Origin: a phage
Length of the DNA stretch: 64,000 nucleotides
Reading direction: 5' to 3' (one strand)
Sequence record: NC_100372.1
Positions within the stretch are counted from its first letter, which is position 1; each line of letters starts with the position of its first letter. Below are positions 1,288 to 62,785 of this stretch, piece after piece. The position numbers and the translations under genes are program-made. Below the pieces are notes generated by a model. It did not search any database and was not told the origin of the DNA. It saw only the letters and a list, made by a program, of their open reading frames with translations.

Positions 1288-1758
1288 ATGAAACTTGATA
1301 AAAATGTTCAACGAAAAGCTTTCTTGGATATGATCGCATATTCAGAAGGTACAGATAACGGTAGACAACCTACCAAGGATCGGGGCTATGATGTCATAGT
1401 CGGTGGCAAGCTGTTTAGCGATTACAGCAAGCATCCGGGTGTGTACGTTAAGCTAAATGCTAAACTTACCTCCTCTGCTGCGGGGCGCTACCAAGTTTTG
1501 GAGAAGTTTGCTAAACACTATATGAAACAGTTAGGATTACCAGATTTTGGCCCTGCCAGTCAGGATAAGATCGCACTACAATTGATCCGTGAGTGCAAGG
1601 CGCTCGATGATATTGATGAAGGTCGTATTCATCAGGCCATCCATCTTTGCAGATCCCGATGGGCAAGCCTTCCTGGTGCAGGGTACGGTCAGCATGAACA
1701 GAAGATTGAGAAGTTGATCGAGGTGTTTAAAAAGGCAGGCGGCATTGTCCTAGATTAA
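1288..1758 (+). CDS. Endolysin, lambda R-like lytic transglycosylase
   Basis: N-terminus QRKAFLDMIAYSEGTDNGRQ...GYDVIVGG and C-terminal WASLPGAGYGQ closely match the phage lambda R protein as I recall it; catalytic Glu in the SEGT motif. Confidence 0.85.
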   Translation: MKLDKNVQRKAFLDMIAYSEGTDNGRQPTKDRGYDVIVGGKLFSDYSKHPGVYVKLNAKLTSSAAGRYQVLEKFAKHYMKQLGLPDFGPASQDKIALQLIRECKALDDIDEGRIHQAIHLCRSRWASLPGAGYGQHEQKIEKLIEVFKKAGGIVLD

Positions 1759-9872: not shown

Positions 9873-10073
9873 ATGGGCAGATGTTCTAAAGGTGGCGATC
9901 CTGTAGTCAGATACGGTGACTGGCTAGAGGTATATGATCTTGGAGGTAAGCTAGTGTATGCCTCCAGGATCACCCAAGACATGTGCTCTGATATGTTTAA
10001 CAGATACCTTGCATTTAAGGCCAACATAAACCCAGACGAAATTTCCAAAATTAAAACAAGGAGAGCTAAATAA
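9873..10073 (+). CDS. Hypothetical protein
   Basis: ORF, start/stop coupling. Confidence 0.45.
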   Translation: MGRCSKGGDPVVRYGDWLEVYDLGGKLVYASRITQDMCSDMFNRYLAFKANINPDEISKIKTRRAK

Positions 10074-11056
10074 TGCTAAAACTGTGCACTGCAAAGATTA
10101 TTGCCGACAGCATTTCCGAGAAAGGTAAGCGTATCACCACTTTTGAGCTAGAGTATCCTCGAATTATTCACTCAGAGCTTATGACACATCGAGTGTTCAG
10201 CCGAAACGCCATGTCTTCTCGTGCAGTTCCTGTCGGTAAGATGCTACAGCAGATCGTGGAGAATCCGGCAATGCCAGTTCGCTTCGGTGTAAATAAGCGA
10301 GGGATGGAAGATGGTGGGGAACACGATCAAAAGATCCGTGTAGAGTATACCGACATGGAGTTAACTCCTGAAGAGTTTTGGAAAGAAGCTGCAAAAAACG
10401 CCGCGTGGCATGCAGAGAAGTTCGCCCTTGCTGGTTACCATAAGCAAGTATGTAATCGCTTAGTGGAGCCGTTTCAGCGCATGAAAACAGTTGTAACAAG
10501 CACCGAGTGGAATAATTTTTTCCATCTGCGTTGCTGGCACGATGCTGATCCTACGATTCAGATGCTGGCTAATTGTATGTGGGATGCTCTTATGAATAGC
10601 ACTCCTGAAACCCTTAAACCAGGCCAATGGCACACCCCATATGTAGAGCACGTTTATTTGGACGGTGAGTTTAACTATGCCGTGCGTGACACAGAAGGGA
10701 AGCTATGCATTCTCGATACTGGAGAAGCTCTATCTATTAGTGCGAGCTGCTGTGCACAAGTATCTTATCGCAATATTGACAGCACGTTTGAAAAAGCAGA
10801 TAGTGTGGCTAAAAAATTGATTGGTGGGGATCGTATTCATGCAAGCCCTTACGAGCACCAGGCGACACCTATGGATCACGATAATGCAATGGAACGTTTA
10901 AACTACTACCTGTCTTCATGTGAAATCACACAAGATAGTTGTGTTTGGCAGGAAGGTGTAACCCATCAAGACCGTGATGGTAAATTCTGGTCTGCCAACT
11001 TTTGTGGGTGGGTTCAGCACAGACAGTTGCTTAATAACCACTTCATGAAAGGGTAA
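10073..11056 (+). CDS. Flavin-dependent thymidylate synthase (ThyX-like)
   Basis: THRVFSRNAMSSRA resembles the ThyX RHR-x7/8-S signature; longer than typical ThyX. Confidence 0.5.
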   Translation: MLKLCTAKIIADSISEKGKRITTFELEYPRIIHSELMTHRVFSRNAMSSRAVPVGKMLQQIVENPAMPVRFGVNKRGMEDGGEHDQKIRVEYTDMELTPEEFWKEAAKNAAWHAEKFALAGYHKQVCNRLVEPFQRMKTVVTSTEWNNFFHLRCWHDADPTIQMLANCMWDALMNSTPETLKPGQWHTPYVEHVYLDGEFNYAVRDTEGKLCILDTGEALSISASCCAQVSYRNIDSTFEKADSVAKKLIGGDRIHASPYEHQATPMDHDNAMERLNYYLSSCEITQDSCVWQEGVTHQDRDGKFWSANFCGWVQHRQLLNNHFMKG

Positions 11057-23940: not shown

Positions 23941-24069
23941 ATGTTTCAAGCCATGTTTATTGAAATGCTCTCTGGGGTATTACTGCTGGTAGCCATTTTG
24001 GGTGGCGCGGCACTGATGTATAATTATCTTGAAAAAGGGGACAGTAATGACAAAAAAATAAATCCTTAG
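23941..24069 (+). CDS. Small membrane peptide (42 aa)
   Basis: GGGGGG RBS; hydrophobic core; ends just after an A7 run. Confidence 0.35.
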   Translation: MFQAMFIEMLSGVLLLVAILGGAALMYNYLEKGDSNDKKINP

Positions 24070-24235
24070 AACAGGCTGAAAACCTTCTCCACGAGCTGGT
24101 AAAGGAGTGGAAAGTTGAATACTCAGATTTTAATGCAAGAGAGGGGGAAGATTATTGGCCTACAGAGCGCTCAGAGGGAGAGTGGTATCAAGATTTCATA
24201 GAATGGCTATATCAGACGTGCGATGAGGGGTGACG

Positions 24236-24691
24236 ATGTTTGTTAAATATGTAAAAACGTGCCTCAACAACCTTGGTAGAGAGCATTGGTACACACTGCT
24301 TGAAAAAGGAGAAATTTTAACAAAATCTGGAAAGATAACTTTGATACCTTTGGACGATAAAGACCCGTCACTACTTGTCATAGATGATTACGTTACAGGT
24401 GTGTCGTACGAGGTATCTGTGGAGAGGTTAATACGCAGATCTGGAGGTCCTTATGACCGAAGAGAGTATGTTTTCGATTCCGTTACAGAGAAGGAAGATC
24501 CGTCCCTAATGTTTAGAATGGTAATCAGGGATATGAAATCATCTATAAATAGGATCGTAAAGGACATTAAGGAGCCTTTTAGGGTAAAAGTTAATAAGTT
24601 TTTTGATTCTAAGATCAACATACTCACCGTTGTGCTAGGCGTAATTCAACTTCTGTTAATTTTGCACTATTTTGAACTGTTGTTTAAGTAA
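24236..24691 (+). CDS. Hypothetical protein with C-terminal hydrophobic helix
   Basis: ATG after GAGGGG RBS. Confidence 0.5.
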   Translation: MFVKYVKTCLNNLGREHWYTLLEKGEILTKSGKITLIPLDDKDPSLLVIDDYVTGVSYEVSVERLIRRSGGPYDRREYVFDSVTEKEDPSLMFRMVIRDMKSSINRIVKDIKEPFRVKVNKFFDSKINILTVVLGVIQLLLILHYFELLFK

Positions 24692-31222: not shown

Positions 31223-31362
31223 TGACTGATTTTACTGAAGCTTTAATGATGGCCTTATCTGTTTTAGCGCTATCGGTGTGTTTTGGAGCGTTATTCACAT
31301 CTCTGGTTAGAGTTTTACATACCATATTATCACCCAAGGAGCACAGTAATGACGAAGATTGA
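31223..31362 (+). CDS. Small membrane peptide (46 aa)
   Basis: Strong RBS, hydrophobic helix. Confidence 0.35.
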
Positions 31363-31627
31363 CTTAAATGCTGGCGACCATTTGTTGTCAAATGCATCGG
31401 GGATTATCTTGGATTCACAATCGGCAACACTTACGAGGCGGTAGTGGCGAAGGTTTATCATGATAAAGTCCTCAGCCTTGTGTTTGACTGTGATGATGAC
31501 GGAGATGACCGTTACGTCTGTGAGGTGCTGGCACGTGACGATAGTGAAGACCAGAAATTCCTGGTTATTGAACTGAACGGTATTTTTGTAGAACGTTAAT
31601 TTAAAACAATATAAGGAGACTCTTACT

Positions 31628-61031: not shown

Positions 61032-61062
61032 GGGGAGGAGTTCCTCCCCCTTTTTTTTTTTT
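61032..61062 (+). terminator. Plus-strand intrinsic terminator (GGGGAGG-AGTT-CCTCCCC + T12) inside the minus-strand block
   Basis: 7-bp stem followed by 12 T on the plus strand; the minus strand has the A-run before the hairpin. Confidence 0.55.
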
Positions 61063-61076
61063 ATACTCACATCTTA

Positions 61077-61418
61077 CTACTCAAGGTCTTCAGAGTCAAG
61101 CTCAAAAAGAATCAAACTGTGCATGCCTGCAGAGAGATCAACACACCCTGCAACAATAAGGGTTTGATAGTAAGGTTCAGCACCCTCAATATCTTCGTTA
61201 AAATCCACAACAAGGTAGTCACCTTTGTTAAAGGTGTATTTGTCCGATGTAAACGCAAAACCTGCCCAGTCCCCTACTGCAGGATCTTTATCAGTCACCT
61301 TTGTTAGCAGTAGATCTTTTTCACGGGATCTTTTAGTAAAATCGTGAATCACAACATCCTTCTCTTCAGGAGTCGGATTGCCACACACGTAGTTAACGAT
61401 ATTTCTCCACAAACTCAT
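61077..61418 (-). CDS. Hypothetical protein
   Basis: ORF. Confidence 0.5.
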   Translation of the reverse strand: MSLWRNIVNYVCGNPTPEEKDVVIHDFTKRSREKDLLLTKVTDKDPAVGDWAGFAFTSDKYTFNKGDYLVVDFNEDIEGAEPYYQTLIVAGCVDLSAGMHSLILFELDSEDLE

Positions 61419-62785
61419 ACGTCCCCCTTTTCTGCTCTAGTTTCAAAATCTTTCCTGACTTTCTCGTCTAAGCCAGGGAAAGTTGTATTATAAAACTCTA
61501 CGACTCTCGGGTCAACAATAATATCCACCTCTCTTAATGGACGCAACAAGTTTATTCCTTGTATCGTCTTAACCCGACTCAAGGCAACATACGTCATTCC
61601 GGGAGAGAAAGCTCCGTTCTTTCCGAGGTCTAGGTTGTAACAATCTAACGTAAGTCCTTGACTTTTGTGCGATGTTACTGCGTACCCAGATTTCAAAGGA
61701 AGTTGCTCATAAGACCCGATCACAACCCTCTCTATGAACTTCTCCATCTTCCTTTCGGCAATATTGTACCTCTGGGAAGGTTTGTACTCGTTATTCTCCC
61801 ACAATCTCGGCTCAATTTCAACCTGTGTCCCGTCTTCCAGCTCAACCACCACAGACTTGGTCTTGAATTTTACCACTGTGGCGCGTGTCCCGTTGACATA
61901 GTACGGAACTTTGTGTGTCGGGTCAACATCGTTTGAGGTTATCATAACCTTCATCCCTATCTTCAGCCTCATTTCCTGCTCCACAGGCAGTGTGGAGGGG
62001 AACTTACCTTTCATTTTACCAATGTAGGTCTTCTCTGGGGCCTTGATGGCATCATAGAAACGTCTGTTCACCTCCTCTGCTTGCTTATTGGTGGCACAGA
62101 TGGTCAAGGCATCTGTTGGGACACCACCATGATAGCAACGAGTGTTAAGCTCTGCTACAACCTCTTTTATGCGACGACCTTCACGAACACAGTTCAACAT
62201 TGTGGCGAAGCGAACAGATTCCTGACGGAACTGGTCTACTAATGCTATATTGTGAAGATTAAGATCCTCCCAAGATTTTGTATAGCAACACAGGTCTGTG
62301 TGGTAGAAGTTGAAGTAGGCTTCTTTCTCCATAGAAGAGACAACTGGGGGTGCTTGGTAGAAATCTCCAAACAATAACACCTGAATGCCTCCGAAAGGTT
62401 TGTCATTTTTCCGAAGAAAGCGGAGTTTTCTATCCATCTCTATGAACTTGTCAGCACGGATCATAGAGATTTCATCGATAATTAGGATGGTAAATGCCTT
62501 GCTTTTCAGAGGCTTTGCTGTTTTTGCCCTTATTGCTGTCCAGTCTGACTCCATGCTCACACCTGCGGCAAGATCGAAAGTTCGGTGCGCTGTTGCTCCA
62601 TTAACGTTTAAAGCGGCTACCCCTGTCGGGGCAACCGTTATGCAAGAGTCTCCATACATGGACTGGATCATGTTGATAAGATATGTCTTCCCGGTTCCAC
62701 CAGGTCCACTTACGAAGACATTCTCACCGCTCATGATTGCAACAAGGGCAGCATCTGTGCCTACATCGTACTGCCCTTTTTCCAT
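61415..62785 (-). CDS. SF1 DNA helicase, Dda/Pif1/RecD-like
   Basis: Walker A VSGPGGTGKTY, motif Ia VAPTGVAA, Walker B IIDEISMI. Confidence 0.75.
   Translation of the reverse strand: MEKGQYDVGTDAALVAIMSGENVFVSGPGGTGKTYLINMIQSMYGDSCITVAPTGVAALNVNGATAHRTFDLAAGVSMESDWTAIRAKTAKPLKSKAFTILIIDEISMIRADKFIEMDRKLRFLRKNDKPFGGIQVLLFGDFYQAPPVVSSMEKEAYFNFYHTDLCCYTKSWEDLNLHNIALVDQFRQESVRFATMLNCVREGRRIKEVVAELNTRCYHGGVPTDALTICATNKQAEEVNRRFYDAIKAPEKTYIGKMKGKFPSTLPVEQEMRLKIGMKVMITSNDVDPTHKVPYYVNGTRATVVKFKTKSVVVELEDGTQVEIEPRLWENNEYKPSQRYNIAERKMEKFIERVVIGSYEQLPLKSGYAVTSHKSQGLTLDCYNLDLGKNGAFSPGMTYVALSRVKTIQGINLLRPLREVDIIVDPRVVEFYNTTFPGLDEKVRKDFETRAEKGDV

Follow-up and report, generated by a model that had tools for sequence, protein, structure and literature searches.

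What does a run of seven adenines mean when it lies near the end of a small membrane ORF and is followed immediately by a long open frame that has no start codon? The locus belongs to a 64,000-nucleotide stretch of phage DNA (record NC_100372.1), referred to here as the window, which comes from a Vequintavirus, an rV5-like myophage of E. coli. A sequence-only reading had offered two kinds of answer: the run might direct a programmed −1 frameshift or transcriptional slippage that produces a fusion protein, or its length might be a homopolymer sequencing error. Related phages point to a plainer solution. We are highly confident that the pattern reflects a one-base change in homopolymer length at the 5′ end of a separate, already annotated gene, whether that change is real or an artefact. 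What the site shows is ordinary: a known hypothetical gene carries a frameshift, or its homopolymer has been miscalled, and no recoding device is involved.

Anatomy of the locus

The upstream ORF (23941-24069) encodes a 42-residue product, MFQAMFIEMLSGVLLLVAILGGAALMYNYLEKGDSNDKKINP, with a single hydrophobic span. Its length in the window results from the extra A, which shifts the stop codon: the version in relatives has 39 residues and ends ...DKK, and the three additional C-terminal residues in the window are INP (...DKKINP). The two features that had drawn attention to the site are indeed present, namely the A7 run at 24052-24058 inside this ORF and, after it, a −1 frame of about 60 codons that lacks ATG, GTG, and TTG and ends in a TGA near the next gene start. 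Bounded by a TGA at 24048-24050 and another at 24231-24233, the frame opens at 24051 and holds 60 sense codons. The ribosome-binding site of the next gene, GAGGGG, falls within the 3′ end of the open frame, and the ATG of that gene (24236) comes two bases after the TGA.

Table 1. Features of the A-run locus, with positions in the window
Feature	Position	Strand	Basis
Small single-span membrane ORF, rv5_gp126 orthologue (phrog_15251)	23941..24069	+	phrog_15251, E=1.4e-30
Shine-Dalgarno AAGGGGA for ATG 24047	24034..24040	+	Window sequence; Murica record annotates a ribosome_binding_site at the equivalent place
Orphaned gp127-family start, ATG ACA AAA AAA TAA (MTKK and stop), 4-codon remnant	24047..24061	+	Extra A
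A7 homopolymer	24052..24058		Six A's in nearly every relative; diverged ones lack the run or have it interrupted
gp127-family gene body, 58 codons and TGA	24057..24233	+	phrog_8789, E=9.8e-33; same protein in ECP26, rV5, and others
Next gene, intact, rv5_gp128 orthologue, virion structural protein (phrog_7821)	24236..24691	+	E=2.6e-65

Absent from the sequence-only reading was a start codon in the third frame. This ATG, at 24047-24049, sits seven bases past AAGGGG (24034-24039), and in the Murica record an annotated ribosome_binding_site lies 7 nt before the orthologous ATG. The body of the open frame, which encodes NKSLEQAENLLHELVKEWKVEYSDFNAREGEDYWPTERSEGEWYQDFIEWLYQTCDEG, is in the +1 frame relative to this ATG and in the −1 frame relative to the membrane ORF. 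Consequently, no intact ORF runs from the ATG in the window, which yields MTKK and then a stop. Deleting one A in silico joins ATG 24047 to the start-less frame and regains an intact gene for a 61-residue protein, MTKNKSLEQAENLLHELVKEWKVEYSDFNAREGEDYWPTERSEGEWYQDFIEWLYQTCDEG, and the upstream ORF again ends ...DKK. Other ways of starting the body were considered and rejected. In-frame ATG, GTG, and TTG codons are absent, and no ribosome-binding site accompanies the CTG found in frame at 24094. Re-initiation past the MTKK mini-ORF fails because the window sequence lacks a start codon for it.

Is such an arrangement likely to occur by chance? The 64-kb window has one A-run of at least seven, the A7 described here, and one T-run of that length, compared with a first-order Markov expectation of about 10 and about 12, respectively; that is, 2 were seen against about 22 expected. 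Runs of at least seven A or T are thus strongly avoided in the window, and the A7 stands out for that reason. The only other homopolymer of at least seven is an intergenic T12 (61051-61062) where the ECP26 phage has T3. It comes after a GGGGAG...CTCCCC inverted repeat and looks like an intrinsic terminator with a T-tract of variable length. Start-less open stretches of at least 50 codons number 19 in the window, so they are not rare in themselves; the one at 24051-24233 occupies a gap free of other genes and shows protein-level constraint. A start-less stretch alone, common in off-frames, becomes meaningful only with comparative evidence.

The gp127-type gene and its A-run in related phages

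In the region around the site, the window matches 119 related records, the closest being ECP26 (99.8% identity over 2.4 kb). The body of the open frame matches the full profile of phrog_8789, a family of unknown function (E=9.8e-33), and its 58 residues are 100% identical to the ECP26 and rV5 proteins. Genes of this family, which we call gp127-type, begin within the 3′ end of the gp126-type membrane ORF and are followed by the gp128-type structural gene, a placement also found in the window. The rV5 gp127 (YP_002003629.1, ORF 132), ECP26DNA_00154 (QDB73566.1), and Murica gp120 genes occupy the same position between the same flanking genes. In the window, by contrast, A7 replaces A6, and the ATG and first three codons no longer share a frame with the body.

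The protein encoded by this frame has been maintained. In comparisons with rV5, Aya, and two diverged relatives, pN/pS of the body frame is 0.00, 0.00, 0.16, and 0.20, respectively, whereas the two other frames give 1.2-2.8. Judged from these sequences, the body is evidently under strong purifying selection. All 13 clusters recovered from a search of 5.8 billion proteins have lengths of 50-68 aa, and the intact ones begin M[TAVS][KT]NK. A profile search of 1.84 billion representatives returned one credible remote homologue (P0014, 88 aa), which has no membrane segment; the remaining matches were short stretches in long proteins with many matched stretches and were judged spurious. AlphaFold models the 61-aa protein as a two-helix hairpin (pLDDT 83.5). 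Searched against Pfam, the 61-aa protein gave only a sub-threshold match to DUF7167 (16.2 bits, cut-off 24.4), and a Foldseek search with the model had no PDB match and, in BFVD, none that was significant (best E=0.93).

What distinguishes the window from its relatives is the length of the run. ECP26, NHEP1, VB-EcoM-WM, rV5, nimi, and Murica all have A6, with a 186-nt CDS annotated from the ATG equivalent to 24047, and in the ECP26, rV5, and Murica annotations the upstream CDS is 120 nt long. Over 880 nt around the site, one A is the sole difference between the window and ECP26. We surveyed run length in about 110 distinct records listed of about 117 matches, judging it from the span of each match, and direct reading of nine loci agrees with these span-based lengths. 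Among the records listed, the A7 length occurs only in APCEc02 (GenBank and RefSeq copies) and in C7, C9, and A112b. Aya is longer by 3 nt, in frame, and all the others have the A6 length; A5 and A8 alleles are absent from the records listed, all of which fit A6, A7, or the +3 length.

Other collections gave the same picture. With a length-tolerant pattern, all four metagenome contigs that contain the site have A6, and genome contigs gave no match. The Logan/ENA loci that have the run also carry A6, three of them (L016-18) included. The exact A7 allele on the window's background was found in none of the matching phage records listed, the metagenome contigs, or the genome contigs, and exact look-ups found neither the A7-specific 42-aa product nor the neighbouring 151-aa protein on record. 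The E. coli complete genomes searched had no match. Pattern scans of IMG/VR returned 0 matches for the A7 version and 0 for the A6 version; this collection is without the site. Diverged relatives without an intact run have ATGAGCACCAAT or ATGACGACAGAAAAT in its place. Three loci with 75% protein identity (L013-15) read ATGAGCACCAATAAA at the run position, Aya reads ATGACGACAGAAAAT, and in both cases the two overlapping genes are kept. Across orthologous loci, a comparison that the sequence-only reading had proposed as a check, the downstream frame is conserved at the protein level, has its own ATG, and normally carries A6.

One A7 record to set beside the window is Escherichia phage APCEc02 (KR698074 / NC_041869). 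Like the window, it has the A7 length, an annotated 129-nt upstream ORF, and an unannotated gp127-type gene. Its surroundings are different, with ATGGT-A7 in place of ATGAC-A7 and 70 substitutions over 880 nt, and this difference in background implies an independent A7 event. Among the related records there are also 18 labelled "Campylobacter phage" (MG065635-MG065690; for example, L006), one of them C7. They share about 94% identity with rV5-like Vequintaviruses of E. coli and are probably the result of mislabelling or contamination. Looking up their accession numbers in the literature gave no sequencing platform.

These comparisons suggest a simple course of events. In the normal state, the gene for a 39-aa rv5_gp126-type membrane peptide overlaps that for a 61-aa soluble, two-helix rv5_gp127-type protein, with the gp127-type ATG 11 nt before the gp126-type stop and the A6 run forming gp127-type codons 3-4. 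Lengthening of A6 to A7, for which replication slippage in the homopolymer is the most likely cause, would leave ATG 24047 reading only the four codons of MTKK, strand the 58-codon body in the +1 frame with no usable start, and extend the membrane ORF by INP. A dispensable accessory gene would thereby be left with a null, or at best very leaky, allele. Whatever expression persisted would depend on unprogrammed slippage: if tRNA-Lys slipped by +1 on AAA AAA A, or if a transcript lost one A, the exact wild-type MTKNKS... protein would result.

Mutation or miscalled base

Is the extra A in the phage DNA, or was it introduced by sequencing? We infer that it is in the DNA and that the allele is non-functional. 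A real loss-of-function mutation is slightly favoured over an assembly error because A7 is seen on two other backgrounds and the same gene is broken in other assemblies. Overall, we hold it somewhat more probable than its negation that a real A6 to A7 mutation frameshifted the gp127-type gene and left a null or very leaky allele.

The three A7 backgrounds are distinct: the window is ECP26-like, and C7 has 2 differences from Murica (which has A6) and 11 from APCEc02. APCEc02 was sequenced on an Illumina HiSeq (2x100), which counts in favour of a real A7. The gp127-type gene also carries lesions of other kinds. One locus (L019, 1501-1653) has G5 shortened to G4, two loci from two sequencing runs (L020 and L021, 1501-1674) have a 5-nt deletion, and one protein (P0009) has an in-frame deletion of 11 aa. 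The recurrence of lesions despite strong conservation suggests that the gene can be dispensed with at times, for instance during propagation in the laboratory or on particular hosts.

The disruptions found in independent public assemblies (proteins P0002 and P0009-P0013) further include a C-terminal frameshift, and the gene is broken unusually often for one under strong purifying selection.

The quality of the assembly can be gauged from its indels. The window and ECP26 differ by 47 indels, and those that are not multiples of three are intergenic save for four exceptions: the A7 site, position 31382, a compensated +1/−1 pair in a lysozyme gene, and two N sites in ECP26. That the non-3n indels are nearly all intergenic indicates real variation filtered by selection rather than an assembly riddled with errors. 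Within the lysozyme gene (window 1665-1672), the two indels relative to ECP26 are 7 nt apart, alter few residues, and keep the frame. A thymidylate synthase ORF (about 10073-11056, 327 aa) and a 456-aa adenine methyltransferase ORF (about 61415-62785) are intact in the window; both are split or shortened at N's in ECP26, so ECP26 is the lower-quality sequence at those sites.

The chief rival to a real mutation is that the phage truly has A6 and the consensus over-counts by one, leaving both genes intact and no biology to explain. We give this account a substantial minority share of the probability. Indel miscalls classically arise in homopolymers. The A7 allele is a singleton on the ECP26-like background, the added base is all that separates the two sequences around the site, and the run is the only one of at least seven A's in a genome that otherwise avoids them. 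The C7, C9, and A112b records that share the A7 are UNVERIFIED (the flag was read on C7). Family-wide purifying selection adds a further argument against a real mutation: it suggests that the gene matters in nature, so that its loss would have to be recent or linked to laboratory propagation. One more single-base frameshift private to the window, at 31382, affects a different small conserved gene and may signal residual assembly errors, but it lies outside any homopolymer. Also telling against a miscall, homopolymer-length differences from ECP26 are few and all others are intergenic, the same A7 appears in the Illumina-sequenced APCEc02, and clearly non-artefactual lesions such as the 5-nt deletion strike the same gene.

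The lesion near 31382 (within 31349-31600) consists of a missing G, CGACCATTTGTTGTC compared with CGACCATGTTGTTGTC in ECP26. It is private to the window, with 40 of the 40 relatives listed being one base longer, and it splits the orthologue of ECP26DNA_00177 (83 aa, MTKIDLNAGDHVVVKCIGDYLGF...).

The homopolymer error raised by the sequence-only reading thus survives in part. The run is one A over the A6 norm, but the extra A may be a real mutation, and correcting it gives a stand-alone 61-aa gene from 24047 rather than a fusion. If the mutation is real, the gp127-type protein would not be made except by unprogrammed slippage, and the membrane peptide would carry three more C-terminal residues. 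For annotation, the gap at 24070-24235 is best labelled as a frameshifted rV5 gp127-type gene (start 24047, extra A within 24052-58) and not as a recoding site or fusion, and the APCEc02 record calls for the same relabelling. Beyond annotation, the value is modest: repeated breakage together with purifying selection marks the gp127-type gene as a conditionally dispensable accessory gene.

Unlikely readings: switching or recoding at the A-run

Could variation in the run itself be selected? The A6/A7 run might toggle the gp127-type gene by replication slippage, or the A7 form might stay leaky, with the variability favoured because it evades, for example, a host defence that senses the protein. 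We consider this improbable. We also doubt strongly that the A6 tract is a mutational on/off switch of Vequintaviruses in which loss is selected when the protein becomes a liability, such as a trigger of abortive infection, and we extend the same doubt to its corollary, that A7 alleles still yield a little wild-type protein because tRNA-Lys slips by +1 or transcripts lose one A. Runs of A or T are hypermutable and prone to slippage (PMC1088944), A7 recurs on three backgrounds among about 115 genomes, and the gp127-type gene has been inactivated repeatedly by other routes. Read from the sequence, a +1 slip in AAA AAA A would remake the exact wild-type protein. However, diverged relatives have lost the run and still keep the gene, and the window contains 34 A6 runs along with 23 T6 runs, so A6 is nothing special. 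A7 occurs in only about 4-5 of about 115 genomes, with no A5 or A8 among the records listed, and it is shorter than the approximately 8-9 nt reported for appreciable transcriptional slippage in bacteria (PMC1088944). Nor was a 97-aa fused product returned by the protein search.

Least probable of all, and very unlikely in our judgement, is that −1 ribosomal frameshifting or +1A transcriptional slippage on the run makes a membrane-anchored fusion of about 97 aa (junction DSNDKKNKSLEQ; ...DSNDKK/NKSLEQ...). The idea has some initial appeal, as the body occupies the −1 frame of the membrane ORF and a tRNA-Lys on AAA 24055-57 could re-pair perfectly at 24054-56. About 12 nt separate the SD-like AAGGGG from the run downstream of it, a spacing like that of the stimulatory SD of dnaX; in this locus, however, AAGGGG just serves the downstream gene as its ribosome-binding site. 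Only A7 alleles, which are rare, show the −1 relation; where the run is A6, the body falls in the +1 frame of the membrane ORF, and in relatives the downstream gene has an ATG and a ribosome-binding site of its own. Read in register with the membrane ORF, the heptamer is C AAA AAA and not X XXY YYZ; its A-site codon can re-pair, and re-pairing at the P site would be with CAA. Folding of the 96 nt that begin at the run gives a minimum free energy of −10.2 kcal/mol (z=+1.21), with 180 of 200 shuffles folding at least as well, and an Rfam search found no frameshift element and nothing at E<=1. The run is not conserved, being missing in L013-15 and Aya, and no homologue that is fused or carries an N-terminal membrane segment was among the matches of two large protein searches. 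Given separate genes in relatives, an unconserved run, no fused homologue, and no RNA element, the programmed fusion suggested by the sequence-only reading is not supported.

The contrast with established recoding systems is instructive. The −1 frameshift of E. coli dnaX uses A AAA AAG, an upstream SD, and a downstream hairpin. The window resembles it in having an A-rich run of lysine codons with an SD-like sequence about 12 nt upstream. It differs from dnaX in that the in-frame heptamer is C AAA AAA rather than X XXY YYZ, no hairpin follows, and the site is not conserved; in relatives, the downstream frame belongs to a separate gene that starts at its own codon.

Transcriptional slippage offers the other precedent. 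In bacteria, productive slippage is documented at runs of about 8-9 nt, and IS elements and Thermus dnaX use conserved runs of 8-9 A's for this purpose (PMC1088944). The window shares with these systems a homopolymeric A-run where two overlapping frames join. In contrast to their conserved runs of about 8-9 nt or more, there are 7 A's here, 6 in most relatives, and none in some; the run is conserved neither in length nor in presence, and the frame arrangement that a fusion would need is missing in nearly all relatives.
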